A stretch of DNA of 22,883 bases from an uncultured Chromatiaceae bacterium (lineage in GTDB: Bacteria; Pseudomonadota; Gammaproteobacteria; Chromatiales; Chromatiaceae), in contig CAZIHO010000051.1 in the NCBI GenBank assembly GCA_964538875.1, positions 1-22,883 of the forward strand. The letters run 5' to 3'. Position 1 is the stretch's first letter; every line of letters begins with the position of its first letter. The position numbers were made by a program, and so were the translations under genes. The notes under the pieces were generated by a model. The model did not search any database. It worked only from the letters and a program-made list of their open reading frames with translations, and was not told the DNA's origin. Shown piece by piece: positions 6 through 20,063 of this stretch.

Positions 6-1793
6 TCAAAAAGCCTGATCCCAACGCATCGACAAGCGGATCGCCGAGTTGACTAGCCCCACCATGCTGTAGGTCTGGACAAAGTTGCCCCACTGCTCAC
101 CGGTTTCCGGATCAATATGCTCGGCCAGCAACCCATGGTGATTGCGGTAAGCCAGCAGGCGCTCGAACAGAGCCCGCGCCTCGACCCGGCGGCCTACGGC
201 TGCAAGGGCATTGATGTACCAGAAAGTGCAGATGATGAAGGCATTCGCCGGAACACCAAAATCGTCCGCTGCCACATAGCGGAAGACAAAATCCCCACGG
301 CGGAGGTCTTGCTCCACGGCGTGGATGGTACCGAGAAACCGGGGATCGGTAGCCTCCAGGAAGCCGATCTCCGCCAAGAGCAGGAGACTGGCATCCAGGC
401 TGTCACCCTCAAAGCTGGCGACGAAGGAGTTGCGCCCCGGATGCCAGGCGCGCTGCTCGATGACCCGCTGCATGGCATCCGCTTGTCCGCGCCAATAGTC
501 GGTACGTCCGCCTAGTCCTAGGTGGGTGGCGATGCGAGCCAGCCGGTCGCAGGCCACCCAGCACATAACTGCTGAGAAGGTATGCACTTGCGCACTGCCG
601 CGCAACTCCCATAGGCCAGCATCCGGCTGATCGAACAGTATCCGGGCCTGCTCGCCCAAGGGTTCTAAGCGCCGAAATAAGGCGGCATCACCCCGCCGGG
701 CCAACCGCTGGTCGTAAAAGATGTGGGCGACCGCCAGGATCACGGCACCGTAAACATCATGCTGGCGCTGCTCCCAGGCCTGGTTGCCGACCCGTACCGG
801 CCCCATGCCCCGATAGCCGGTAAGAGCCGCCACTTCCCGTTCCGGGAGTTCTGCGCGGCCGTCGATGCCATACACCGGATGCAGGACGCCATCTGGGGTC
901 TCGGCGGCGACGTTGAGAATGAAGCCGAGATAGCGCTCCATGGTTTGGGTCGCCCCCAGCCGGTTGAGGGCATTGATGACGAAATAGCTATCCCGCAGCC
1001 AGCAGTAACGGTAATCCCAGGTGCGGGGGGTATGGGCCGCCTCGGGAATCGAGGTGGTAACGGCGGCGATGATGGCGCCCGTATCATCGTAGGCGTTCAG
1101 CTTTAGGCTAATGGCCGCACGGATCACCGCATCCTGCCATTCAAAGGGAATGCCCAGAAAGCGGACCCATTCCTGCCAATATCGGATCGTCTCCTCCAGG
1201 AACCGGCGGCCAACCTCGTCCACCGCCCCGCTCAGGCTCTCATCTGGCCCCAGCACCAGCGTCAGACGGTCTTCCAGATAAAAATAGCTCTCGTTCTGGA
1301 TGGCCGTGATAGACGCATCCGTCGTGATACGCACCACTAGGTCCGGCATCAGATAGCGGAGATGATGGCTGCCGCAGGTTTTTGCGGGCCGCCCGGTGCC
1401 GTAGCCATACAGGGGGCGGATTCGCAACCGTATCCGCGGGCTCCCGGCCAGACGGCGCAGCCGCCGCACCAGGTTCATAGGCCGGAACATCCGTCCATAT
1501 TGCGCAAAACGCGGGGCAAAGTCGGTCACCTCAACGCTACCGCCGTGGCGGTCGGTCAAGCGCGTGACCAGGACGGCAGTATTTTCGAGGTAATACTGTT
1601 CAGACTGCTCGCAATCCAGCAGGTCGATGGCCCAATAGCCGCCATCATCCGGACCCCGCTCGCCTTGAAGTAAGGAACAAAACATGGGATCCGCATCGAA
1701 GCGAGGAAAGCAGGCCCACACCAGTTCCGCGTGGCGGTCGATGAGGGCGCCAATGGTACAGTTGCCAATCAGGGCGAGATCCAGATTTTTCAT
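6..1793 (-). CDS. Glycoside hydrolase family 15 (glucoamylase / trehalase-like) protein, 595 aa, complete.
   Basis: Translation contains the GH15 catalytic-domain motifs 'AAVTTSIPE' and 'WDYRYCWLRDSYFVINAL' (the WxRD region of glucoamylase-type (alpha/alpha)6 barrels). Length is typical of bacterial GH15 proteins. Its ATG overlaps the otsB stop (ATGA), so it is the last gene of the ots operon. Confidence 0.75.
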   Translation of the reverse strand: MKNLDLALIGNCTIGALIDRHAELVWACFPRFDADPMFCSLLQGERGPDDGGYWAIDLLDCEQSEQYYLENTAVLVTRLTDRHGGSVEVTDFAPRFAQYGRMFRPMNLVRRLRRLAGSPRIRLRIRPLYGYGTGRPAKTCGSHHLRYLMPDLVVRITTDASITAIQNESYFYLEDRLTLVLGPDESLSGAVDEVGRRFLEETIRYWQEWVRFLGIPFEWQDAVIRAAISLKLNAYDDTGAIIAAVTTSIPEAAHTPRTWDYRYCWLRDSYFVINALNRLGATQTMERYLGFILNVAAETPDGVLHPVYGIDGRAELPEREVAALTGYRGMGPVRVGNQAWEQRQHDVYGAVILAVAHIFYDQRLARRGDAALFRRLEPLGEQARILFDQPDAGLWELRGSAQVHTFSAVMCWVACDRLARIATHLGLGGRTDYWRGQADAMQRVIEQRAWHPGRNSFVASFEGDSLDASLLLLAEIGFLEATDPRFLGTIHAVEQDLRRGDFVFRYVAADDFGVPANAFIICTFWYINALAAVGRRVEARALFERLLAYRNHHGLLAEHIDPETGEQWGNFVQTYSMVGLVNSAIRLSMRWDQAF

Positions 1794-2533
1794 ATAGTCT
1801 CCATCACCAGCCTGGTGAGCCAGCCACGTACCTGGACTATGTCCGGTAGCCGGTACTGGGCAATGGTCGGTTCGGGTCCGACTTTGATCGCGACGCCCCC
1901 CATACGACTGACTGCGGCGAAGGCAGGTTCATCGTTATCGTCGTCGCCGATGAACAGGGGCCGGCGCCCAGCGAATGGCGGTTCGCCCAGGTAAGAGGTG
2001 ATGGCAGTGCCCTTGTCGATCCCCGCCGGCTTGAGTTCGACGACCCGCTTGCCCGCTTGCAACTCGTAACCTGGACCCGCCTGCGCCATTATTTTGGCCA
2101 TAGACTCCTGGACATAGGCCGCTAAGTGGGGCTGACCGCGGTAGTGCAGGGCTAGGGTCAAGCCCTTATCTTCCAATAGCAGGCCAGGTTGCTGCGCCTG
2201 GACCTGTTGCAAGCGGGCCTGGAGTCGCGGCCAGACCGCCGGCCTGGCGGGGCTCCACACCCGCCCTTGGGAGTCACGGCGCTCCAGCCCATGCTGTCCC
2301 GCCATGGGAATGGCCAGGGTTCCCAGCCGGCTATCTAAATCTGCCAGGGAGCGGCCGCTGATCAACGCCAGCGCTCCTCCGGCCACCTGTTTCAGCCGCC
2401 CTAGCAAATCCAGCAGCGGCGCGTCGATTCGCACGGCGTCCGGCCTAGCGGCGATCTCGATCAGGGTGCCATCTAGGTCAAGGAAATAGGCCCAGTTCGA
2501 TTTGGGCGTGGGTGGAACGTTGGTGGGCGACAT
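1790..2533 (-). CDS. otsB: Trehalose-6-phosphate phosphatase (HAD family).
   Basis: HAD motif I 'FLDLDGTL', motif III lysine in 'KPAGIDKG' and motif IV 'LFIGDDDNDE' align with E. coli OtsB (FDLDGTL ... FIGDDLTDE). It lies 22 nt downstream of the otsA stop on the same strand. Confidence 0.9.
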   Translation of the reverse strand: MSPTNVPPTPKSNWAYFLDLDGTLIEIAARPDAVRIDAPLLDLLGRLKQVAGGALALISGRSLADLDSRLGTLAIPMAGQHGLERRDSQGRVWSPARPAVWPRLQARLQQVQAQQPGLLLEDKGLTLALHYRGQPHLAAYVQESMAKIMAQAGPGYELQAGKRVVELKPAGIDKGTAITSYLGEPPFAGRRPLFIGDDDNDEPAFAAVSRMGGVAIKVGPEPTIAQYRLPDIVQVRGWLTRLVMETI

Positions 2534-2555: not shown

Positions 2556-4790
2556 TCATTTGGCCGGCGCCGCCGGTGTTAGCAACCGTCCCCGGCGACG
2601 CATCAGGGCCGCATCCAGCAGCATACGCCCGGCCCAGCGGTACACGTTGAATTCCATAACCAACGCTCGCATCAACTTCATCCGGTCCCGCTGCTCGGCC
2701 ACGGGCATGGTCATTGCCAGGTGCAAGGCGGCGGCGCATTGGTCCGCATCGTAGGGATTGACGATCAGGGCCTCCGGCAACTCCCTGGCAGCGCCAGTAA
2801 ACTGCGACAGGATCAGCACCCCCAATTCGTCATCATGGGCGGCCACATACTCCTTGGCGACCAGGTTCATGCCATCGTGGAGGCTGCTGACGAAACAGAA
2901 ATCCGCTGCCCGGTAGTATTCATACACCTGAACCGGCTGATGTTGCTCGGCTTTCAGGATGATGGGCGGCATACCGCCTTGGGCGAAGCGTGCGTTGATC
3001 TGTTGGGCCAGGGCCTCGACCCGGGCTTGATGATCTTGGTATTCACCGATCCGGGAGCGCGTCGGAGCGGCGATTTGGATGAAGCTAAAGCGGCCAATCC
3101 ACTCCGGGCGCAGCTCCAGCAGGCGCTCGATGGCCCGGAACCGTTCCACGATACCCTTGGTGTAATCGAGCCGATCCACGCCCACCCCTAGAAGGCAATC
3201 CGCGGGCAGTCCGTTTTGTGTGCGCAACAGCGGGCGGCAGGTCTCCAACGGCCTGGCCAAGCTGGCGTGTAGCGGCGGCCACTCGATGGAAATGGGATAA
3301 CGGCGCACTGCGGTCAGCTTGCCACCAAAGGAGACGGTGTGGGACTCACGATCCACCCGTGCTTCCAGACAGCGATCCACGGTATCCACAAAGTTGTTGC
3401 AATGGAACATGGTGTGGAACCCCAAGATGCTGCTGCCTAGCAAACCGTCCATGATCTCTGGGCCCCAGGGGCAAATGGCGAAGGACTCAGGATTGGGCCA
3501 GGGAATATGCCAGAAGGTGATAATGGTCGCCTCCGGCAGCCGCTCCCGGATCATGCGGGGCGCCAAGGCAAAATGGTAATCCTGAATCAGCACGATGGGA
3601 TCCGGGGTCTTGGCGGTGGCCACCACCGCGTCGGCGAAAATGCGGTTTACCTCGACGTAATAGGCCCAATCCTCTGACCGGAAGGTGGGCCGCACATGGG
3701 CAATGTGGCAGAGGGGCCACAACCCTTCATTTGAGAAACCATAATAATAACCAGTTTCCTGCTCCGGCGTCAGCCAGATTCGCCGCAGGCAATAGACCGG
3801 GTCATCCGGCGGAACCGCGACTTGGTCCCGTGCGTCCACGGTCTCCCGGTCAGCACTGCCGCTGCCGTGGGCGATCCAAACGCCGGAACACGCCCGCATT
3901 ACCGGCTCCATGGCTGTCACCAGGCCGCTGGCCGGACGGTGCACCTCGACCTGACCCTCCCGGCGCAGGTGAATATAGGGTTCCCGGTTAGACACCAAGA
4001 TAACGTCGTCGCCCCGCAATTCTCCCCGGAGAATGGCCCGCAAGGCCTCTGGGGTCCAGGTAATCTGGCTTTCATCCCGGGACCGGTAGCTCGATTCCAA
4101 TTCCCTCAACAACCGCTGCAGATCCCGGGCGATGGGCTGGAATTCGGGGGCGGGAGGAACCGCAGCGAGGCTGGCCTGGGGACGCCGGACCAGCCCCTCG
4201 CCACGAAGAATGGCGCGCATACCCGCAACCCAGCCGCGCCAAGACAACTGGGCGATCACCACGGTAATGAGTGACACCAGCAGGGTGACACCAAGAAACA
4301 CGTAAAACACATATTGCCGCGTCTCGGCGCTGCGCCGTCCGACGAAGCTCATGTCATGGACGATGACCAGTTGTGCCGCAGGTGCCGATGCCGTGGCCAT
4401 GGATTTAACGGCCAGGTGCAATAGGCCATGGGTATTCTCGAGGATTGGACGGCTTTGTTCACGCCAGCGCGACAGGTCGTTACAGTGAATCTCAGACGGC
4501 AATGACGCGGTCGCGATCATAGGGCCTTCGGGTCCAGCGCAATAAGCGAGGGCGAATAAGCGTTCATCCAGGGTGATATTGCTTAGAAACGCCGTGACCT
4601 TGGCCGGCGCCTGCGAGGCTAGCCACAAGGTGAGGGGTTCCCTGATCGCGTTGCTGATCAGATCAGCACGAATATCCAGATCGCGCTCGAACCAGTGCAA
4701 AGTCAACCGGTCTATCAGCGGTACCAGTCCGTACGCGACAAGGCCTAAGGCAAGGATCAAAGGCACAATGAATCGTAACGATATTCGCAT
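2556..4790 (-). CDS. otsA: Trehalose-6-phosphate synthase (GT20), 744 aa, with a ~255-aa N-terminal extension carrying two predicted TM helices.
   Basis: The C-terminal ~480 aa align with E. coli OtsA from '[11 protein letters not shown]' (E. coli 'RLVVVSNRIAPP') through '[15 protein letters not shown]' (E. coli '[17 protein letters not shown]'). The N-terminus has hydrophobic stretches '[20 protein letters not shown]' (aa 7-26) and '[23 protein letters not shown]' (aa ~160-183). A GGGAGGAGG-like RBS (ggaggagggg on the coding strand) lies just upstream of the ATG at 4790. Confidence 0.85.
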
Positions 4791-5000
4791 AGTGGTCCCC
4801 TCCTCCTTTTATTCACATCGTCAGCCGCGCACGATTCCGAAGAAAAACTTGTTGACGGCAACCTAACAGAGGGTAAAGCCTTACCCGCCTTCCGCTTCGG
4901 ACCCTCCAGATTCCGGTGGCGGTTTTTTCGCATACCCTAGGGTAGTAAAGAAAAAAATAGTGCATTGAAATCCCGTTATAGCCCCTTCTGCCTGAGTTGG
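4791..5000 (-). promoter_or_regulatory. Probable promoter / 5'-UTR region of the otsA-otsB-GH15 operon.
   Basis: Non-coding, locally AT-richer sequence ('agtaaagaaaaaaatagtgcattgaaatc') immediately upstream of the otsA start. No -35/-10 boxes could be assigned with confidence. Confidence 0.3.
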
Positions 5001-5690
5001 ACCGCACGGACACAGACCTGTTCTGTCACTGGACCCGGCAAGAGCCGGCGTCCAACAAACACCTGCCCCCGCCAGCCACTGGTGCTGGTAGACGCCCAGC
5101 TAGGGACGAACCAATCTGGCCGTCTGCAAAGGGCGTCGACTAGGCGGACCGCTAACTGGTTGTCATAGGCTATTTTCCTTGGTGCTCTGGGACATTTGGC
5201 TGGACCTGCAACCGGTCGAGCCGTTGGAATATTCCCGGCCGGAGCGCTGGTCGGGGACTGGAGCGGTAAGGCGATTATTCAGCGCTACCCACTTGGTTTT
5301 CATAAAAATTTCTAAAGGCCGCAAACCAGCCAGAACTGGCACCTATAGCCGCCAATACCGATGAACGGTGCCGGGAATCCCGCATATCCCTTTCTCAGGC
5401 GGGGATCCTTGGGCAAACCAAGAGCACTCACTTCCGCCGCAGCTCCCTGACGCTGGCAATAGGAAGTTATGGTCGGTTGACTATCCGGGGACCGGGAATG
5501 ATCTGGGCTTAGTCAGGATCATTCGGTGTTGGCAGCAGGCTGGTTTCCGGTGGATTGCGAATCGGTTCCAGTTCATGCCACAGACGCCGGTGTTGGGCAA
5601 GACTGGTGGCCGCGGACCTGGGCAGCATCCGGACTTCAGGCGCAGCCGCGCCGGTTGCGAGCAATCAATCACTTATGTCACGAGCGGCGC

Positions 5691-6091
5691 ATGGACTTGC
5701 TCAGTTCGGCCGCCTGGGACCTATCCGCCCTGCCGGAACCGGCCCGGACCCTGGTGGCGGAGTTAGTGGCGCATCCGGCGGCTGGGGACCGGGCCTCCTG
5801 TAGCCTGAATTCCCAGGCCGGTCGCTTCGATTTTCGGGCGGAACGCCTGCAGAATCGCCGGGGCTCCGGCGGCCGGATCCTGGTCAACATCAGTCACGCG
5901 GAACCCAGGGATCTGAGTGTGGCCCGGCGCTTGGCGGATTGGTCCCTGGCACCCCAGGAGAAGCGGAGGCGTTGGGCGTGAAGGTGGGAACCCTGAAGAT
6001 GTACATCAACCAGCTCAAGGCCAAGTTGGAAATCGAGTCACGAGAGGCGTTCATCGGCCAACTGTTGGCGGAACCCCCGTCCGATCCTTGA
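5691..6091 (+). pseudogene. Degraded small HTH regulator (LuxR / sigma-70 region-4-like helix-turn-helix) interrupted by a frame change near 5960.
   Basis: Frame ending at stop 6089-6091 reads 'EAEALGVKVGTLKMYINQLKAKLEIESREAFIGQLL'. This resembles the recognition-helix segment of LuxR/sigma70_r4 HTH domains ('IAE.LGIS.GTVK..L..A..KL'). The upstream part ('MDLLSSAAWDLS...ISHAEPRDLSVARRLADWSLAPQE') is in a different frame. No intact ORF joins them. Confidence 0.25.
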
Positions 6092-6445
6092 GGCGCGGCG
6101 CGGACGGGTTGGGTTCCCGGTCGAGGCGTCCTGAATGGTCCGGTGCACCCCATCCCTACCGCGCCCAGCCAGCACGGCCAGCGTCCACAGCCCGCCCGGG
6201 GGGAAAGCGCGCCATCGCCAGGCAACTCACTAGCCGGGGTGCGCCGATACCCCGCGCCGCTCATTTGGGCAATAACCACCCCATCAGCCTTATCCATGGT
6301 TTGTAATGGGCTGCCTATCCGTTATCCGGTGGATTTTTTGCTGGCCAAATGGTCATTGACACATTTTCAATGGGCCATTCCGTGAAAATATTTCTTTAGT
6401 GTTCATGTGCATCATTTACGGTTTTGCTACCCATGGGTCACCCGC

Positions 6446-6464
6446 TTGGGGCACAGTATGTGCG
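6446..6464 (+). promoter_or_regulatory. Possible sigma-54 (-24/-12) promoter-like motif upstream of the MVP-like operon.
   Basis: 'tgGGGCACagtatGTGCg' has GG-N10-GC spacing resembling the TGGCAC-N5-TTGCW consensus, with one mismatch in each element. It lies ~165 nt upstream of the MVP start. It could be chance in GC-rich DNA. Confidence 0.15.
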
Positions 6465-6630
6465 GGACCTGTGCAACGCCCGGCAGGCATGTCCCCAGGG
6501 TTGGCCGGTCAAGCATCCATTTGGTTGCAACCCAATGGGCTGGGGATCCGGCAGCAGCCTCTGGCGGTGACGGGCTTCGACCCCGGACCTGGCCGACCTT
6601 TTACGTCAAAGAGTTTGAAGGGGATTCAAG

Positions 6631-9165
6631 ATGCCAAGAGAAGACGATCGTCCGATGCGCGAAACGGAACTGGTGCTGCCCCCCGGCGTCTTTGCCTTCG
6701 TACTAGATAGCACTAAGGGTAATATAAATACCTATTGCGGCCCCATCAAGCAAAGCCTGAGTAATACCGACCAATTGGTCGTCTATAACGCCGATAGCCG
6801 CCGCTTCCAACCGGCGGCCAATTTCAGCCAGGCGATTCAGACCCATATCACCGCCGCTAAGGGGCACTACGTCATCCTGCAAAACCCGTCCCGGGATGGG
6901 CATCATCCCGAACCGGGCAAAGCGGAGATGTTGCCCCCGAATTTCCTCAAGACCGGGGAAACCGAGAACCTGCCTGGCCCCCAATCCTTTCCCCTCTGGC
7001 CCACCCAGACCGCTGAGGTGGTGTTGGGCCACCAATTGCGTTCTAACCAGTATCTATTGGTGCGGGTTTATGACGAGGAAGGCGCCCGGACCAATTGGAA
7101 CCAGGGCGTCATCAAGCTGGCGGAAACCGCCGGCGTCGGCAATGCGCCCGCCACCTCGGTGCTGGGCATCGATCCCACCGGCCTGTTCACCGGCCAATTG
7201 CTCATCATCATGGGGAATAAGGTCAGTTTCTATATTCCCCCGAGCGGCATCGAGGTCTTACCGGAGAGCGGCGGCACCGAGCCCCGCTATGTGAGGGACG
7301 CGGTGACCCTGGAGCGGCTGGAGTATTGCATCCTGTTGGATGAAAGCGGCCTCAAGCGTTACTTGATCGGCCCGGAAGTGGTCTTTCCCAAACCCACCGA
7401 GCAGTTCGTGATCCGGGACGGCAAGCGCAAATACCGGGCCTATGAATTGACCGACATCAGCGGCCTGCACATCAAGGTCATCGCCGACTACCAAGAACCG
7501 GACGGCGCCTGGCATAAGGCCGGGGACGAACTCTTCATCACCGGCGCCAGCCAGTCGATTTATTATCCCCGGTCGGAACACGCCATCATCAGCTATGGCG
7601 ACCGGGAACTCTATTACGCCATTGCCATTCCCTCCGGGGAAGCCCGCTACCTGATGAACCGTCGCACCGGCGACATTCGCTTGGTGCGGGGTCCGGCGGT
7701 CTATCTGCCCAATCCCATCGATGAGGTGGTGGTCAAGCGCATCCTGAGCGATAGCGAATGCGGCATGTATTTTCCCGGCAATGGCGCGGTGCTGGACTAC
7801 AACCGGTCCCTGCGGACCCGAGGTGCGGGTGGGGCGGCGCCCCTGGAAATGCCACCGGACGGCCCCCGCCCGCCCCCACTCCCGGCGGCGCCAGCCGTCG
7901 CCCTCCGGGAACTCGCTGGCCCTGGTGCCTTCGGCGACACCCTGCAACGGGTAGCGACCTACACTCCCCCACGCACCATCACGCTGGACACCAAGTTCGA
8001 GGGGGCGGTGACCATCGATGTCTGGTCCGGGTACGCGGTGCAGGTGGTGAATCGCCAAGGGGAACGCCGGGTGGTGACCGGCCCCCAAACGGTCTTGCTG
8101 GCCTATGACGAGATCCTGGAACCCCTGGCCCTGAGCATGGGCACTCCCAAGGACCCGGCCCGCACCCTCAAGACCGTCTATCTCCGGGTCCGCTCCAATG
8201 CGGTCAGCGACCGGGTCAGCGTCAAAACCCGGGACCTGGTCCCCCTCACCGTGCAGTTGAAGTACCTGGTGCGGTTCGACGGTGATCAAGCGAGCTGGTT
8301 CAACATCGACAACTACATCCAATACCTTTGCGACCATTTGCGCTCCCTGATCGGCAATCAGGTGCGGGCGATCGGGGTGCTGGAGTTCTATTTTTCCGCC
8401 GCCACCCTGCTGCGGGACCTGGTGTTGGGCGCCAAGGCCCAGGACGGCAGCCGGCCGTTGCGGCATTTTGCGGAAAACGGCATGACAGTCTATGACCTGG
8501 AGGTGATTAGCATCTCCATCGACGATGACCGCATCGACCAACTGCTGCACCAATCCCAGCAAGAGAATCTGCTCAACACCATCGAGTTGGAACGGCAACA
8601 GCGCCTGCATCTGCTCACTGCCGGCCAGGAACAGGCCAAGCGCCAGATCGAGCAGGAGCGGGCCACTACCCAGGCCCTCACTCAACAGCTGTTGCTGGAC
8701 ATTAGCGAAGGTCAGGACCGGCTGGCCATGGCGGAAATTCAATCCCAGACGAGCCGGGAACAGCAACGGGCCAACGGGACCCTGGAAGTACAGGCGATCG
8801 ACAGCCGCATCGCCGCAATGCGGCTGGCGGAGCGCCAGGCGCAGTTGGAAAGCGAGGCCCATTTTGCCCACCTGGCCCTGGAACAGCGCCTGCGGGAGAG
8901 CGATGCCCAGGCCCGCCACCTCACCGAGCAAATGGCGGCCATCCAACCTGCCCTGGTAGAGGCGCTGACCGCCATCGCCGCCACCGGCACCCTGCAATCC
9001 CTAGCGGAACATCTGGCGCCCCTGAGCCTGGTAAGGGACCAAAGTCTGGCGGCCACCCTGGAGCAGATGTTCCGGGGCACCCCCCTGGCGGGGCTGTTGG
9101 ACAACCTGCGTCAACTGGGCCAGGGACGGCTGTTGCAAGGAGAGGACCCGGCCGATGCCAGCTAG
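6631..9165 (+). CDS. Major vault protein (MVP)-like protein, 844 aa.
   Basis: The N-terminus 'ELVLPPGVFAFVLDSTKGNINTYCGPIKQSL...VVYNADSRRFQPA...KGHYVILQNPSRDG...GPQSFPLWPTQTAEVV' parallels human MVP '[32 protein letters not shown]...VLFAPMRMVTVPP...PRHYCTVANPVSRDAQG...AQDPFPLYPGEV'. Repeated ~55-aa MVP-repeat-like segments follow, and the Gln/Glu/Arg-rich C-terminal helical region resembles the MVP cap-helix. An AAGGGG RBS lies 8 nt upstream of the ATG. Confidence 0.85.
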   Translation: MPREDDRPMRETELVLPPGVFAFVLDSTKGNINTYCGPIKQSLSNTDQLVVYNADSRRFQPAANFSQAIQTHITAAKGHYVILQNPSRDGHHPEPGKAEMLPPNFLKTGETENLPGPQSFPLWPTQTAEVVLGHQLRSNQYLLVRVYDEEGARTNWNQGVIKLAETAGVGNAPATSVLGIDPTGLFTGQLLIIMGNKVSFYIPPSGIEVLPESGGTEPRYVRDAVTLERLEYCILLDESGLKRYLIGPEVVFPKPTEQFVIRDGKRKYRAYELTDISGLHIKVIADYQEPDGAWHKAGDELFITGASQSIYYPRSEHAIISYGDRELYYAIAIPSGEARYLMNRRTGDIRLVRGPAVYLPNPIDEVVVKRILSDSECGMYFPGNGAVLDYNRSLRTRGAGGAAPLEMPPDGPRPPPLPAAPAVALRELAGPGAFGDTLQRVATYTPPRTITLDTKFEGAVTIDVWSGYAVQVVNRQGERRVVTGPQTVLLAYDEILEPLALSMGTPKDPARTLKTVYLRVRSNAVSDRVSVKTRDLVPLTVQLKYLVRFDGDQASWFNIDNYIQYLCDHLRSLIGNQVRAIGVLEFYFSAATLLRDLVLGAKAQDGSRPLRHFAENGMTVYDLEVISISIDDDRIDQLLHQSQQENLLNTIELERQQRLHLLTAGQEQAKRQIEQERATTQALTQQLLLDISEGQDRLAMAEIQSQTSREQQRANGTLEVQAIDSRIAAMRLAERQAQLESEAHFAHLALEQRLRESDAQARHLTEQMAAIQPALVEALTAIAATGTLQSLAEHLAPLSLVRDQSLAATLEQMFRGTPLAGLLDNLRQLGQGRLLQGEDPADAS

Positions 9166-11782
9166 CCTTAGCACCCAGCCCTTCACGCTGATCCTGGCGG
9201 ACAGCCTCACCAACGACTTCATGGGCGGCGGGGCGTTCGAGCAAACCGGAGTACATATCGGCCAGCGGGACGTGGAGCGGCTGATGGGGGCCGGCAGCGC
9301 GGCCGGCAACGGCCCCCTGCCCACTTTCTTGAGTCAGGCGGTGGCAGCCCGCCGCCAAGGCCGGCCCATCGGCCTGATCCTGGTGCGGGATTGCCACGAC
9401 CCCAAAGACCCGGACCAACTGCCGGAACTGCTCCGCTATGGCCGTCATAACGTCCGGGGCGAACAAGGCGCCGCCTTTTTGCCCTTCCTCAAGCCCCTGC
9501 TAAGTGCGGCCGCCATCCTGGAAACCCGCTCCCTGTCCCTGCCCCTCAAATCTCTGCGGCGGGTGACGCGACGCCTGTTAGGACAGGATCTACTGACCCT
9601 GAACGGGGAACAGCGGCGGCTGCTACGCTGGGTGCTGGTGGGGTGCCACACGGACAAGCGGATCCTGGGCACCGCCAATCTGTTGCGCAACGTGTTGGAA
9701 TTTCCCAATGTCGCGGTCTGCCCCCATCTGGTGGGGAGCAGTAACCACGAGGCCCACCTGGCCAGCTTGCAGGTGGCTCTGCCGGATGCCTTGGTGCAGG
9801 TGTTTCCCGATCTCCGCGCCCTGCTGGGGTTCGCCGGCCTGGCGAAAAAGCCGTTCCGCCAGTTCGACTGCCGGGGCGCGGCGCTGGGGCCACCCGGCGT
9901 GATCCAGTCCTTGAACGCGGACCAGAGGCACATCCTGGAGCTGGCTTTTCTCCGTTGCTCCCAGGTGACCCTGCAACCTTTGAGCGGCGGATTTAGCGGC
10001 AGTCTGCTGTGGCTGGCGCGGCGCCAGATCGACGGCGTGGCGGGGGCGCCGGTGGTGGTCAAGATCGACCGGCATGGGGCTATGCAAAAGGAATTGGAAG
10101 GCTACGACCGGGTCAAGGCCATCTTTGGTAGTCAGGTGCCCAGCTTCGGTACGCCCATCTCGTCCGGCGGTCATACCGGCATCCTCATGGAACTGGCCTC
10201 CCGTTCCGGCACGCCCCACACCCTGCAATGGCTGTTTGAGCAGGCGGTGGAACAGCGCGACCCGGACCAATTCCTAGCCCCGCTCCGGGCCAGCCTGGAA
10301 TTGCTGCACCAGCGCCTGTACCGGCCCACCTTGCGCCGGTGCCGCTTCTCGCCCTGGCAGCGGCTCGGGCTGTCCGCGCCCCAGCAATGGGAGTGGCTCA
10401 GGGAGAATATCGGCCACATCACCAACGACGGCTGGCAAGGCGGCCCGATCCGGCTGACGCCGGATCTGGTGTTGGAGGACTTCACCGCCCTGTTCCAGCA
10501 ACTGGCCGCCGACTCCCATTGGCTGCCCGGCGCCCATTGCCTTGGCCATGGAGATCTGAACCTGGCCAACATCATCCTGGATGACCTGGCCAATGTCTGG
10601 TTCATCGACTGGACCCACGCCGGGTTGCTGCCCGTGGAATTGGATCTGGCCAAGCTGGAAAACGACATCAAGCTGGTGGTCAGCAAGGGGCTGGCCCACC
10701 AGGACCTGGGGGACCTCCTGATCCTGGAGCGTCTGCTGCTGGAACAGCGGCTACCCCTGCCCCTGGAGGAAGCGGCCAAGCGGTTGCCGGGGTTGGCCAG
10801 CGACCCGCACCTGGCCTTGGTTTACCAATCCGTGGCCGCCATCCGCCAGCGATACGCGGACCTGCATCCAGAGCAGGATGACACCCTGTATCAAATCGCC
10901 TTGCTGCGTTATGCCACCCATACCCTCAGTTTCGATGCCCGGCGCGGGCGGGGCGAGTGCAGCTTGGAGCAACTGCGACACGCCCTGGGCACCGTGCATC
11001 TGCTGGTGCAACAACTGGCTAGGGGCGATTTTCACCGGCTGACCCCCGCCGTGCGGCCCGACTCCTACCCGGACCGGCAACGGCTACCCCGGGAACTGGC
11101 ACCCTGGCCAGTGCCCTGTCCGGACTATCAGCCCCCCTTCCATGAGGACCCCATCCTGTCCCACAGCGACTGGGCTGATCCCCTGGACATGGACTGGGCG
11201 CCGCCGGATGACGCCGACCCTTGGCGGGACCCCCTGGGCCGTCCCCTCAATCCACGGGGCCGCACCGGCTTGGCGGGACGGGGGCTGCTGGGCCGCTGGG
11301 GCGCCAACCGGGCGGTGGATCCGGTTATCACCCGGATCAATCCCGGTAACGGCCGGCTGGAACTGCTGCTGGGCCGCCGTTGGGACACCGGCGAAAGCTC
11401 CCTGCCAGGCTGTATGCGGCTGGCGGGGGAAAGCGAGGCCCAGGCCCTGGTCCGCTGCCTGCGGCTCAAGGCCGGGATTTCCCTGCCCATGAAAGCGGGC
11501 AGCCGGGTCTACCGGGGGCCGGTGGACGATTTCCGGGACACGGACCACGCCTGGATCGAAAGCAGCACCTGGAGTTGGCATTTGACCGGCAAGGCGGCCC
11601 GGCGCCTGTACTTCCGGGGCGGCGGCGGTCTCGGCGAACTGGGCTGGACGGGCATCAGCCCCGAACTGCTGCGGAGCCTGTTCGCGGGCCACGCGGACCT
11701 GGTACGGTGCGCCCTGCGCTGGCGGGCCGCCCGCCGCGAGCCCGGCGCCGATCAGATGGAACAGCTTTTACGGGAGAGTTGA
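9155..11782 (+). CDS. Three-domain protein, 875 aa: N-terminal isochorismatase/cysteine-hydrolase-like domain, central APH/protein-kinase-like phosphotransferase domain, C-terminal NUDT9-type Nudix (ADP-ribose-binding/pyrophosphatase-like) domain.
   Basis: N-terminal domain: '[11 protein letters not shown]...[13 protein letters not shown]...[13 protein letters not shown]...[18 protein letters not shown]' follows the isochorismatase/PncA pattern (VIDxQNDF ... HCVxGTxGAxF ... VVGIATDxCV). Middle domain: '[30 protein letters not shown]' is the HGD catalytic loop plus the DFG-equivalent of APH/choline-kinase-fold enzymes. C-terminal domain: '[29 protein letters not shown]' and '[25 protein letters not shown]' closely match human NUDT9 ('[29 protein letters not shown]', '[25 protein letters not shown]'). 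The start overlaps the MVP stop by 11 nt, with an AGGAGA RBS upstream. Confidence 0.8.
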   Translation: [875 protein letters not shown]

Positions 11783-14886: not shown

Positions 14887-15004
14887 ATGGGCGACTCGGC
14901 TCCCATGAGCGTCTGGCTGTCCAAAAAGTCCTGCGCCAGATCGCTGCTTATGGCGGTGACATCCCGAAGGAATTGATCGTCTAATTGCAAGTAGAAAGTC
15001 AATA

Positions 15005-15035
15005 GCGCGGACAAATGTCCGCGCCGTTTTTCTTA
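15005..15035. terminator. Stem-loop terminator-like hairpin immediately after the GT2 gene stop, possibly bidirectional.
   Basis: 'GCGCGGACA-aat-TGTCCGCGC' is followed on the + strand by 'CGTTTTTCTT' and on the - strand by 'TATTGACTTTCT'. It starts directly after the TGA of the 15036-16517 gene. Confidence 0.5.
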
Positions 15036-16517
15036 TCAGGGAAGTCGTGGAGTTATGGTAATGGAGGAAACAGGCACTCCAAGCAATCTTTTATCTTTAG
15101 GGACAAGCCAGGGCTCGCAAGTTAATGCAAAACGGGTTGGTGCATCTTCGTTTACCTGAAACGAAATCCTTCGCGGAGCGCGTTCCTGCAAAACTGGCAT
15201 TGGCTTCTCGTTGATATAAAATTTTAAATTCTCTATAGGCCGAATAGCCATTAACCAGTCAATCTCCAGATCATAATTACCCGGCACCAGGGAAATTTCT
15301 ATCATTGCAACGGGTTCGCTCCACCTAAATCTTTTGCCCTGCCATTCTTCAGAAGCATAAAAGCCCCCAAAAGGGTAAGAGCGCGCTTCATCCGCAGTCC
15401 ATCGTAGGGATGAAGTGGCTGCTGAAGGCTTTTCCTCAATATCGAAAGCGAAGCGAACTCTTTCAAGCTTAACCGTCGCATCGATCAGCTGCAAAAATTG
15501 TGTGTGTAGATAAGATTTTCCGAACCGCAAATTGAGCAAAAGGGTTAAGAGCCATCGTTTAACTTGAAATCGAAGCCAGGCATGGGTCAGGGATGTTCTC
15601 TTTAATGTTTCAAATGGAAAACTTAATCTAAGTAACATCAAGCCGCGTGCAAATATCTCACGAGGGCTCAAACATCTTCGGAAAGACTTCGAATGCGAAT
15701 TGGATGACAGCCTAAATGCCCTGTCATATAATCTCGAATTCCATCGATAGAAATTCAGCCACTCGAGCGGGTCTGGAAAATAAGAGCGGCTTTCATCATC
15801 TTTATATTTTGAAAGGTATGTCATTTCCCCACGGGCAAAATCTTCCGAAAATTTAATTAACTCTTTTATTTCTCCGATATAATAATGATGCACTTGGGCT
15901 TCTGGTACATACCCGATTTGATATCCATTTTGGTGCATTCGGGCAGCTAAATGCCATTCAGCAAAGTGACCAAGTTCGGGGTTAAATCCGCCTGCCTTAT
16001 GGTAATTTCCTGCACGCACTACAAAACATTGATCTAATATTCTCCTCCAAGGACATTCATTCATACCATAAAGGAGATCGGCTTCATACATATCGGCTTC
16101 GATCACAGACAGGCGATTGTGCGTTATACGAATAGATTGGCAGGAAAACCCTGCCCAGTCCGGATGTTCATCAATCGCTTTATCTGCTACGGACAAAATA
16201 TTTCGATCTGGCAAAACATGAGATTCGGTGAAAAACAATATTTCACCTTGGGCTTGTCGGGCGCCAAATGCACATAAAGCCATGTCGTGAGGCTCATCAA
16301 AGAGCAACAATCGATCATATTCACTCAATAGGGTCTTGAAATATGCAATTGTCTTTAAATCTAATGAGAATCGGCACCCAACAGCAACGACTTCAAATTG
16401 TTCGCGCAGGTAATCTTGCTCTTTAACCCAACGGCGTAGACATTCTTCACTTTGCCCACGATGGAACTCTAATGGAATAATGATCGAAAAACGAAAGGAC
16501 GGTTTTTTTTCAGCCAT
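15036..16517 (-). CDS. Family-2-like (GT-A fold) glycosyltransferase with a ~250-aa C-terminal domain of unknown function, 493 aa, low GC.
   Basis: N-terminus 'FSIIIPLE' and 'AQGEILFFTESHVLPD' match the GT2 start and DxD region. '...VRAGNYHKAGGFNPELGHFAEWHLAARMHQNGYQIGYVPEAQVHH' matches the GT2 'GGF.E......ED.DL..R....G..I.Y.P.A.V.H' region. Local GC (~45%) is far below the flanking DNA. It is 33 nt downstream of the sulfotransferase gene on the same strand. Confidence 0.65.
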   Translation of the reverse strand: MAEKKPSFRFSIIIPLEFHRGQSEECLRRWVKEQDYLREQFEVVAVGCRFSLDLKTIAYFKTLLSEYDRLLLFDEPHDMALCAFGARQAQGEILFFTESHVLPDRNILSVADKAIDEHPDWAGFSCQSIRITHNRLSVIEADMYEADLLYGMNECPWRRILDQCFVVRAGNYHKAGGFNPELGHFAEWHLAARMHQNGYQIGYVPEAQVHHYYIGEIKELIKFSEDFARGEMTYLSKYKDDESRSYFPDPLEWLNFYRWNSRLYDRAFRLSSNSHSKSFRRCLSPREIFARGLMLLRLSFPFETLKRTSLTHAWLRFQVKRWLLTLLLNLRFGKSYLHTQFLQLIDATVKLERVRFAFDIEEKPSAATSSLRWTADEARSYPFGGFYASEEWQGKRFRWSEPVAMIEISLVPGNYDLEIDWLMAIRPIENLKFYINEKPMPVLQERAPRRISFQVNEDAPTRFALTCEPWLVPKDKRLLGVPVSSITITPRLP

Positions 16518-16550
16518 AATAAAATTCTATTGCTGTTTGAGCGCAATGCT

Positions 16551-17579
16551 CTATACAGACTCCACTATCTGCATATTACGGACGCCCAAAATAAGCGGAC
16601 GGGTATCGCCATTGGGCAGCACAGGGATGGTGGCCTGCTCCACTGCTTCAAGGATAAGTTCATTCTCGCCAACAGAGACCGGCACACTTACTGCTACAGC
16701 ACCCGGCTGGACAGCGAGTATAACGCTCCAATTTCCTGATGTTACACGAAGATGCCGTTCAACATGCGCATCGAAACTGGGGCCTGGGATGGCATCAAAC
16801 ATCAAACGGATTTCCCCATTAAATGCCGTATAAACATCTAAGTGAGTTGCGGCTCCGCCGATCCAAAAAAAAGGTAAGTTATCTAATGTTTCCAATCCGT
16901 TTGGGTTGATAACGGATAGCACCTGTAATGGCAGATTGGTCTCGGCGGTCCCATCGGCATACCCGGCTGGCAATGAATATCCAAATTCTTCACAAAAATC
17001 AACCAATGAACGGCGCAAACGGGCTGGGAACGTGTTCAGGTATTTAAAAAGTACCGGGTTCTTTTTCCATTTTTCGATCGAGTCTGAAAATATCCGAATT
17101 CCTGCTCGGTTTTCACTAAAAGTATGAGCGACGGCAAGGTCGAAGTGTTTTGACAATTGTGTCTGAACAACATCTGGTTTGGCGATCAATTCTTCATACT
17201 TCAAAATAAACACTTTCGGGTTCGGCTGTTTCTTGCGCAGGGTATGCCAGGCATCATATTCCATCATCCAACGATCGAACGTAATATGAAATCTGCGCAA
17301 ATGCTTAGTTAACGGATGTGTACTGGTCAAGACATCAAACGGATGACGCACGCAATAGATTAGCCCTATATCATCGGGTAGAGACGCAAGGGTTCGCCAA
17401 CATTCGCCGGTTCGTTTGATGACAACATTACTTTCAGGGCAGAAAATTTTGGAAAAGCTTGAAAAAGGGGCTTCACCATATGCGCCTTCCGTGTATACAT
17501 AGGTATCTTCAAAACACCCCATTAGATCCCGGATCAAAGTCGTTCCGCTTCTTCCGCAACCAGCAATAAAACTCTTCAT
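16551..17579 (-). CDS. Sulfotransferase-family protein (Sulfotransfer_3-like) with an extra C-terminal domain, 342 aa, low GC.
   Basis: PAPS 5'-phosphosulfate-binding loop 'IAGCGRSGTTLIRDLM' (consensus GxxRSGTT). 3'-phosphate-binding region 'IYCVRHPFDVLTS' (RDPRD-type). AT-rich upstream region. Co-oriented with the GT2 gene. Confidence 0.7.
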   Translation of the reverse strand: MKSFIAGCGRSGTTLIRDLMGCFEDTYVYTEGAYGEAPFSSFSKIFCPESNVVIKRTGECWRTLASLPDDIGLIYCVRHPFDVLTSTHPLTKHLRRFHITFDRWMMEYDAWHTLRKKQPNPKVFILKYEELIAKPDVVQTQLSKHFDLAVAHTFSENRAGIRIFSDSIEKWKKNPVLFKYLNTFPARLRRSLVDFCEEFGYSLPAGYADGTAETNLPLQVLSVINPNGLETLDNLPFFWIGGAATHLDVYTAFNGEIRLMFDAIPGPSFDAHVERHLRVTSGNWSVILAVQPGAVAVSVPVSVGENELILEAVEQATIPVLPNGDTRPLILGVRNMQIVESV

Positions 17580-17747
17580 GGACCCTTCCAGGCGGAAATT
17601 TATATCTTATCATCAACAGCGAGTATATCAGGTTGTATAAGGATAAAGCGATCATGCCACCTTATCTATTGAAAATAGCCAACGAATTTCTGAGAGCATT
17701 CATAGTATCAGATACTTTTCAACCTGCTAATACCATTTGAATGAGAA

Positions 17748-17772
17748 GCGGGCCGGCACCTGCCGGCCCGCT
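17748..17772 (-). terminator. Rho-independent terminator of katG.
   Basis: The perfect hairpin 'GCGGGCCGGCA-ggt-GCCGGCCCGC' begins 12 nt after the katG stop (minus-strand sense). It is followed by 'TTCTCATTCAAAT'. Confidence 0.6.
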
Positions 17773-17783
17773 AAACGCCTCGA

Positions 17784-20063
<2,280 letters not shown>

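Follow-up and report, generated by a model that had tools for sequence, protein, structure and literature searches.

A trehalose-6-phosphate synthase with a predicted sensor-like, membrane-spanning N-terminal module from an uncultured Chromatiaceae bacterium

The DNA considered here, referred to below as the window, is a stretch of 22,883 nucleotides (nt) from an uncultured Chromatiaceae bacterium (GenBank assembly GCA_964538875.1, contig CAZIHO010000051.1), and the gene in question is the otsA homologue at positions 2556..4790 of its minus strand. This open reading frame (ORF) of 744 amino acids (aa) encodes a trehalose-6-phosphate synthase, OtsA, whose catalytic domain, of glycosyltransferase family 20 (GT20), is preceded by an extension predicted to comprise a first transmembrane (TM) helix, an extracytoplasmic domain of PDC/Cache-like fold, a second TM helix and a HAMP-like linker. 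It is very probable that the protein is anchored in the membrane with this extra domain in the periplasm and, with a good deal less assurance, we lean towards the view that it acts as a one-component transmembrane receptor having OtsA as its output, with genuine signal-dependent regulation of the enzyme. An earlier note on this DNA, made from the sequence alone, had drawn attention to positions 4020-4790, which correspond to aa 1-257, as a sensor-like N-terminal addition to OtsA. The features of the gene, all on the minus strand, are as follows.

4797..4807, minus strand: Shine-Dalgarno-like sequence AGGAGGAGGGG, 7-17 nt upstream of the ATG at 4790, read from the sequence
2556..4790, minus strand: the whole gene, for a probably membrane-anchored OtsA consisting of N-terminal module and GT20 domain (ORF list, Pfam, NCBIfam)
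4710..4778, minus strand: TM1, aa ~5-27, with a short positive N-terminal tail (R2, R6) (hydrophobicity peak 2.48; family median 2.43)
4314..4709, minus strand: probably extracytoplasmic PDC/Cache-like (PAS-like) domain, aa 28-159 (predicted fold)
4242..4313, minus strand: TM2, aa ~160-183 (hydrophobicity peak 2.69; family median 2.68; top-residue frequency 0.77)
4083..4241, minus strand: HAMP-like helix-coil-helix linker (predicted secondary structure, hhalign, conservation)
4005..4082, minus strand: loop with invariant W245, then a short helix (aa 247-256) that connects to the first GT20 strand (predicted structure)
2556..4004, minus strand: presumably cytoplasmic GT20 domain, aa 263-744, in which the OtsA active site is intact (Pfam, residue check)

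The extension and the catalytic domain of a single polypeptide

Standard OtsA enzymes had been described in the earlier note as soluble proteins of ~470 aa, and E. coli OtsA, at 474 aa, conforms to this. Its N-terminus (MSRLVVVSNR) aligns at aa ~262-269 of the window protein and the alignment continues from there on, so that about 260 N-terminal residues are extra; the earlier estimate of ~255 was thus close to the 262-aa extension delimited here. When aa 1-261 were used alone as a query, 366 proteins were found at 46-60% identity (47-60% among the 105 aligned matches), from Rhodocyclaceae, Gallionella, Burkholderiales, Gemmatimonadota, Acidobacteriota (Vicinamibacterales), Phycisphaerae and metagenome-assembled genomes (MAGs) of Limnocylindrales, and those of them that bear a name are called either trehalose-6-phosphate synthase or hypothetical protein. 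When 1.84 billion proteins were searched with a profile made from the extension, 1207 representatives of clusters formed at 50% identity had E<=0.001, and 246 of these had E<=1e-30. Judged on these sequence comparisons, the similarity of the extension to its relatives is far beyond chance.

The extension also keeps its place. The comparison with orthologues that had earlier been proposed as a check finds it in at least 529 species-representative genomes, and at the 80 loci that were fetched the GT20 domain follows in the same frame wherever the contig is long enough; all 120 of the full-length homologues listed (68-76% identity, plus one identical sequence) are 740-763 aa long. Even in members with only 27-43% identity, R6, W33, D37, R41, L44, R77, C84, C103, D146, R153 and W245 are invariant. 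On 12 metagenome contigs, drawn from several sequencing runs, the exact window protein recurs with identical neighbours. The carriers, hundreds of species of importance in the environment, include Accumulibacter, Sulfuritalea, Rhodoferax, Gallionella, Geothrix and Gemmatimonadota MAGs, and since there are cultured organisms among them (Sulfurisoma sediminicola, Geothrix fuzhouensis and Denitratisoma oestradiolicum), the proposals made below are directly testable.

It might nevertheless be argued that the long form is an artefact of annotation, the true start being internal and near the GT20 boundary, in which case the gene would encode an ordinary soluble OtsA and the upstream 260 codons would not be translated. 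In-frame TTG and GTG codons are indeed present near that boundary (at L250, L258, L265 and V266), and for the phosphomannomutase AlgC, discussed below, the possibility of a shorter product, initiated internally, was raised beside the long form (bioRxiv 10.1101/589796). Against this, the ATG at 4790, which is the earliest possible start past the upstream stop, is preceded by a strong AGGAGG ribosome-binding site (RBS), the 3' end of AGGAGGAGGGG lying 7-8 nt from the ATG, while no convincing RBS was found ahead of any of the four TTG/GTG candidates. The earlier note had envisaged a true start at an internal Met near aa 255; there is no such Met, none being present from aa 190 to aa 293, and the long-form ATG has its RBS. 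No conserved internal start at the GT20 boundary was found in the family consensus, and the extension is conserved as protein, with its invariant residues persisting down to 27% identity and its frame shared with GT20 in related loci. Taken together, the absence of Met, the absence of a conserved boundary start and the conservation mean that the objection based on a wrong start codon fails. A mis-called start is essentially excluded, and the artefact reading as a whole may be regarded as highly improbable, although a minor short form made alongside the long one is conceivable. Translation of the polypeptide from the ATG at 4790 is strongly supported in silico, and the pattern of conservation indicates that the 262-aa extension is no start-codon artefact but a real, translated and ancient part of the protein.

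The catalytic part matches Pfam GT20 (PF00982) over aa 263-724, covering profile positions 3-468 of 473 (E 1.9e-115, 386.8 bits against a cut-off of 32.5), and a GT20 core is thus found behind the linker, as had been claimed. All 11 of the E. coli OtsA active-site residues that were checked are kept, both in the window protein (R269, G289, Y349, W358, D404, H428, R540, K545, R578, D639 and E647) and in 12 sampled family members; the corresponding E. coli list (structures 1GZ5/1UQU) we take to be R9, G22, Y76, W85, D130, H154, R262, K267, R300, D361 and E369. By sequence, the closest solved structure is the OtsA of Mycolicibacterium thermoresistibile (5jij, E 1.3e-77). The best NCBIfam matches are to OtsA and TPS/TPP equivalogs, in each case from aa 263 on and below cut-off, the OtsA equivalogs not being reached (TIGR02400, 396 bits against 564.85; NF011071, 457 bits against 634), while the model for glucosylglycerol-phosphate synthase is weaker still at 281 bits; cultured homologues are named alpha,alpha-trehalose-phosphate synthase by NCBI. 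As the equivalog cut-offs are missed, the protein should be counted as OtsA-like but of a divergent subfamily. Though divergent, the catalytic part is by its sequence clearly an OtsA, for which synthesis of trehalose-6-phosphate is predicted.

Predicted topology, periplasmic domain and linker

Hydrophobicity was assessed over the whole protein using Kyte-Doolittle means in 19-residue windows with a threshold of 1.6, while family statistics and the model of the extension were based on an alignment of 106 members, conservation being expressed as the mean top-residue frequency per segment. The threshold is exceeded at two places only, aa 1-31 (peak 2.48) and aa 157-189 (peak 2.69), and both segments are kept over the 106 members (median peaks 2.43 and 2.68, the loop between them having a median of 1.0). 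These correspond to TM1 at aa ~5-27 and TM2 at aa ~160-183, in agreement with the earlier assignment of TM helices to aa 7-26 and aa ~160-183. In TM1, R6, F7, P10 and L11 are invariant or nearly so; in TM2, T176, A180 and S183 are invariant, small or polar, and lie on one helical face. A match to the Pfam model ‘Adeno_E3B’ in 29 of 33 members (E about 1e-3, below cut-off) involves TM2 alone and was rejected as an artefact of a hydrophobic segment.

So far as orientation is concerned, counts of Lys and Arg on the 15-residue flanks (5 versus 7) do not discriminate, so that the assignment rests on the short positive N-terminal tail and on a substrate argument: GT20 needs a nucleotide-glucose and glucose-6-phosphate and should therefore be cytoplasmic, which would place the loop in the periplasm. 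The topology would accordingly have both termini inside and the loop outside the cytoplasm. A different arrangement deserves mention, namely a type I topology in which the first segment is a cleaved Sec signal peptide, leaving a periplasmic N-terminus, TM2 as the only membrane span and again a cytoplasmic GT20 domain; such a protein would remain a receptor-like enzyme, transmitting through a single membrane pass. The layout of n-region and h-region, with MRISLR ahead of a run of hydrophobic residues, would suit this, as would a potential cleavage motif, L-V-A|Y, at aa 17-20. However, the hydrophobic stretch, at ~20 residues, is long for the h-region of a signal peptide, its sequence is strongly conserved (R6, F7, P10, L11, L15, A19, P24), which is unusual for signal peptides, and in the predicted structure a single helix joins TM1 to the first helix of the PDC domain, much as in two-TM sensor kinases. 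The type I arrangement is accordingly disfavoured, and we regard it as improbable.

An AlphaFold2 (AF2) model of aa 1-262, calculated from the 106-sequence alignment, has a mean predicted local distance difference test score (pLDDT) of 84, with blocks of ~87-96 over aa 21-190, and contains the following elements.

aa 5-58: helix, one continuous element beginning with TM1 and running into the periplasmic domain
aa 62-76: helix
aa 78-84 and 91-93: strands
aa 103-111: helix
aa 116-119, 122-130 and 140-146: strands
aa 148-195: helix, into and through TM2
aa 196-214: coil, of low confidence
aa 215-236: helix
aa 247-256: helix, with pLDDT about 75-77 for this region in a full-length model

The long helix continuous with TM1, the five-stranded antiparallel sheet, the flanking helices and the helix leading into TM2 are those of a PAS-like fold, and the loop of aa 28-159 is accordingly predicted from the model to be a single PAS-like PDC module. 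PDC/Cache folds are those of the extracytoplasmic sensor domains of histidine kinases and chemoreceptors. When the model was compared with the PDB using Foldseek, the best match was a full-length WalK model, with its succession of TM, PDC, TM and HAMP (E 2e-5, 271 columns), followed by CitA, KinD, erWalK, Mlp24, PctA and similar domains at probabilities of up to 0.99. The segment of ~130 aa that the earlier note had placed between the TM helices, and the sensor-like topology it had ascribed to the protein, are both borne out by the predicted fold and by these receptor matches. The domain carries two invariant cysteines, C84 and C103, and a conserved polar set (D37, R41, D75, E76, R77, H145, D146 and R153). 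Exactly two Cys are present in the loop in 105 of the 106 members, and two invariant Cys fit an oxidising, periplasmic location; C84 and C103 probably form a disulfide.

No usable sequence model for the extension was found in Pfam, NCBIfam or the PDB, whether the window sequence was used alone, 33 members were used singly, or a profile was used against the PDB. Specifically, Pfam Cache, CHASE and PAS gave no match to the window protein, a match to CHASE4 appeared in only one of the 33 members (E 0.15), and the extension profile found nothing among PDB sequences at E<=10.

The linker between TM2 and GT20 can be divided into an AS1-like part (AS, amphipathic sequence) at aa 184-199 (SWRGW...GEG), a variable connector at aa 200-214 and an AS2-like part at aa 215-236. 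In the AF2 model the TM2 helix runs on to aa 195 and a second helix follows the coil, giving an amphipathic layout of ~50 residues, and hydrophobic residues recur at spacings of 3-4 (W184, W187, M191 and L194; I220, L224, L227 and L231, read from the sequence). The charged helical linker of the earlier note, aa 221-242, falls largely inside the predicted helix of aa 215-236. Alignment of the family against seven HAMP domains, each of which passes the Pfam cut-off for HAMP (scoring 27-56 bits under identical conditions), gave an hhalign score of 19.2 (P 0.005, probability 6.9%), the pairing placing GEGL...PEFxPIARDLxxL on the HAMP motifs aeGnL...DEIgxLa. None of 200 column shuffles reached this score (mean 10.2, standard deviation 2.1, maximum 17.1), and a reversed template scored 8.4. 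There is in addition a weak NCBIfam match to the part of DgcN/YfiN that comprises TM2 and HAMP (E 0.05). From its sequence the linker thus appears HAMP-like in position and length, and weakly so in sequence, HAMP membership being unproven.

Along the extension, top-residue frequencies are highest in the AS1-like helix (0.84), TM1 (0.78), TM2 (0.77) and the outer juxtamembrane segment (0.76), followed by the AS2-like helix (0.74), and fall to 0.47-0.57 in the periplasmic sheet and third helix and to 0.44 in the connector, which is the most variable segment of all. The TM helices and the linker are therefore better conserved than the periplasmic domain; this has the look of a transmission module, since one would not expect the best-conserved part of the protein to be no more than an anchor, and to that extent it argues against a passive role.

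Receptor or anchor, and the relation to known systems

If the protein is indeed a receptor, it would probably act as a dimer or higher oligomer, in which a cue (a ligand, the ionic or osmotic state, the state of the envelope, or redox) would alter the periplasmic domain or the membrane, and the N-lobe of the GT-B fold would receive the change by way of TM2 and the HAMP-like bundle. Arg269, which binds glucose-6-phosphate, lies only ~7-12 residues past the linker helix, and because of this closeness a signal could switch acceptor binding or lobe closure; synthesis of trehalose-6-phosphate would then be switched without new transcription. The earlier note had suggested that synthesis is either membrane-anchored or regulated by an extracytoplasmic or membrane signal: for the first of these the two TM helices, the PDC-fold loop and the linker speak directly, while regulation is something that we infer from them.

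Several observations weigh against a receptor. Neither Pfam HAMP (PF00672) nor related models match the window protein or any of 33 members at E<=10, the hhalign probability of the HAMP match is low, with AS1 and its usual Pro left unmatched, and in a full-length monomer model the linker (aa 190-237) has pLDDT <50 and its contact with GT20 is not defined. To these must be added the lack of Pfam sensor-family matches and the undiscriminating charge count already described, and also the finding that the putative ligand-pocket region of the PDC domain (aa ~85-121) is its least conserved part. No ligand can be named because the pocket is so variable, and the same variability speaks against one small-molecule ligand shared by the family; as judged from the sequences, a cue other than a ligand (ionic, osmotic, membrane or redox) would be as likely. 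Architectures were inspected for the best 150 of the 1207 cluster representatives, and among these the module was never seen with a classical signalling output (kinase, GGDEF or MCP), so that the case for a sensor is built on fold and architecture; in all genuine cases examined it is fused to GT20. Two apparent exceptions were discarded, one (P0226, 887 aa, with no Pfam match) being a frame-shifted translation of a high-GC contig containing in-frame islands of the module, and the other (P0192, LytB plus receiver plus module) having a duplicated LytB stretch typical of a chimeric assembly. No upstream partner gene is conserved, the commonest ORF family occurring at 8 of 54 loci. We know of no GT20 enzymes that are controlled by dimerisation.

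The main rival explanation is that the module is a passive anchor or scaffold, which merely tethers or oligomerises OtsA at the inner membrane without any signal, so that trehalose is made where membranes need protection or beside a transporter, the periplasmic domain being structural. The unconserved pocket, the restriction of the module to GT20 in everything inspected and the unproven HAMP membership are all compatible with this, as is the fact that OtsA enzymes work as soluble proteins (the 474-aa E. coli enzyme being an example). It must be remembered, however, that an anchor has no need of a folded domain of ~130 aa with two invariant Cys and a polar set kept to 27% identity, that anchors are usually weakly conserved whereas here TM1, TM2 and the helix that follows TM2 are the best-conserved parts (0.77-0.84), that the fold is that of receptor sensor domains, and that no conserved gene for a transporter or other partner was found nearby. 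A purely passive role is, on this evidence, rather unlikely, if far from negligible.

Soluble OtsA enzymes (E. coli, 1GZ5/1UQU; M. thermoresistibile, 5JIJ) share with the window protein the GT20 domain of GT-B fold, the active site and the linkage to otsB, but they are about 455-490 aa long and have no TM helix, whereas here there are 262 extra residues, made up of TM1, PDC-like domain, TM2 and HAMP-like linker, and the score falls below the NCBIfam OtsA equivalog cut-off (396 against 565 bits). By analogy, the front end would do the work that the sensor and transmitter half does in two-TM sensor kinases. In contrast to the two-TM PDC kinases (WalK, CitA, DcuS, PhoQ, PhoR, CpxA) and other HAMP receptors, the output is a glycosyltransferase instead of a DHp/CA kinase, GGDEF or MCP domain, there is no phosphorelay partner, and by sequence the module lies outside the Cache, CHASE and HAMP families of Pfam. 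As to other GT20 synthases with additional N-terminal regions that modulate or redirect the enzyme, plant class I TPS1 reportedly carries an auto-inhibitory extension, and Ralstonia RipTPS is said to have an N-terminal secretion domain (a type III secretion signal); these extensions are soluble and unrelated in sequence to the present module, and are not membrane-spanning receptor modules.

The nearest precedent, and the closest published analogue, is membrane-bound AlgC, a phosphomannomutase with an N-terminal dCache domain that had been overlooked in annotation, and for which environmental control of activity was proposed, not proven (Qian, Fei and Galperin, bioRxiv 10.1101/589796). In both proteins a cytoplasmic enzyme of sugar-phosphate metabolism stands behind two TM helices that flank a periplasmic sensor domain of the Cache superfamily. 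They differ in output (a phosphohexomutase in AlgC, GT20 here), in the sensor, which in AlgC is a double Cache of ~200 aa recognised by profiles and here a single PDC-like domain of ~130 aa that has no Pfam model and is followed by a HAMP-like linker, and in taxonomic range, AlgC of this kind being found in Gammaproteobacteria and the OtsA fusion mainly in Betaproteobacteria, Acidobacteriota and Gemmatimonadota. In full-text literature searches, no bacterial OtsA described as membrane-anchored or fused to a sensor was found; a Geobacter genome paper notes of GSU2337 only that it ‘contains a domain’ similar to OtsA. The sequence family is already public under the plain label ‘trehalose-6-phosphate synthase’, with a third of the protein covered by no model at all, and it is the architecture and its implication that appear undescribed.

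In bacteria, trehalose synthesis is understood to be controlled mainly at the level of transcription (in E. coli through RpoS and the osmotic induction of otsBA) or else allosterically and in the cytoplasm (mycobacterial OtsA). Whether the family amounts to a widespread and undescribed class of receptors, in which an extracytoplasmic sensor of PDC type directly gates the compatible-solute enzyme OtsA, is a matter on which we find the case evenly balanced. If it does, Betaproteobacteria, Acidobacteriota, Gemmatimonadota and others would control trehalose synthesis independently of transcription and within seconds, in response to an osmotic, envelope, redox or chemical cue, and the exterior of the cell or its membrane would be linked physically and directly to compatible-solute synthesis. 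It would follow that a GT-B glycosyltransferase can be the output of a receptor, driven through a HAMP-like linker, and the short list of non-classical outputs of transmembrane sensors would be extended by a metabolic glycosyltransferase.

Operon and neighbouring genes

Two further genes of the operon lie downstream of otsA.

1790..2533, minus strand: otsB, trehalose-6-phosphate phosphatase, 22 nt downstream of otsA (Pfam Trehalose_PPase, NCBIfam)
6..1793, minus strand: glycoside hydrolase of family GH15, trehalase-like (Pfam Glyco_hydro_15 and TREH_N)

The otsB product reaches 152 bits with TIGR00685, above the cut-off of 68. The start of the GH15 gene overlaps the otsB stop by 4 nt, and its product is closest in NCBIfam to the archaeal GH15 trehalases TreH1 (E 2e-91) and TreH2 (8e-71), below the equivalog cut-offs in both cases; no relative was found among PDB sequences at E<=1e-5. 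In most of the 80 related loci otsB follows otsA and the GH15 gene comes third. Should the latter prove to be a trehalase, products of the operon would both make and break down trehalose. With synthase, phosphatase and putative trehalase in a single operon, control at the level of the protein would set the direction of net flux, and such control is made plausible by the co-encoding of synthesis and probable hydrolysis.

Upstream, the 1.8 kb at 4791-6630 between the otsA start and a divergent gene contains no convincing gene, its only gene call being one of 96 aa (5694-5981, plus strand) that has no Pfam or NCBIfam match, and no Rfam family was found there or elsewhere in the window; promoter-like and terminator-like sites upstream of otsA do not exceed shuffled expectation. 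The divergent gene (6631-9165, plus strand) encodes an 844-aa protein with Pfam Major Vault Protein (MVP) domains (MVP_shoulder, E 6e-20; Vault_3, E 5e-11), and its stop is overlapped by a gene (9155-11782, plus strand) for an 875-aa protein with TCAD9 (ternary complex associated domain 9, E 3.5e-29). There is no NCBIfam model for either product, and the pairing of a bacterial vault-protein homologue with a domain of conflict-system type is unusual. The same MVP-like gene adjoins otsA on independent metagenome contigs.

Further along, at ~15000-17800, there is an island of low GC content (0.42-0.48, against 0.60-0.70 around it) that looks horizontally acquired. Its ORFs encode a protein of 493 aa without a Pfam match (15036-16517, minus strand) and a sulfotransferase-like protein of 342 aa (16551-17579, minus strand). 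Beyond it lies a gene (17784-19970, minus strand) for a haem peroxidase of 728 aa, which matches the Pfam peroxidase family in two stretches and is catalase-peroxidase-like by size. Adjoining this is a large hybrid sensor kinase (20113-22878, minus strand) that comprises HisKA, HATPase and receiver domains as well as three PAS domains, and whose ORF as listed reaches to within five bases of the end of the window.

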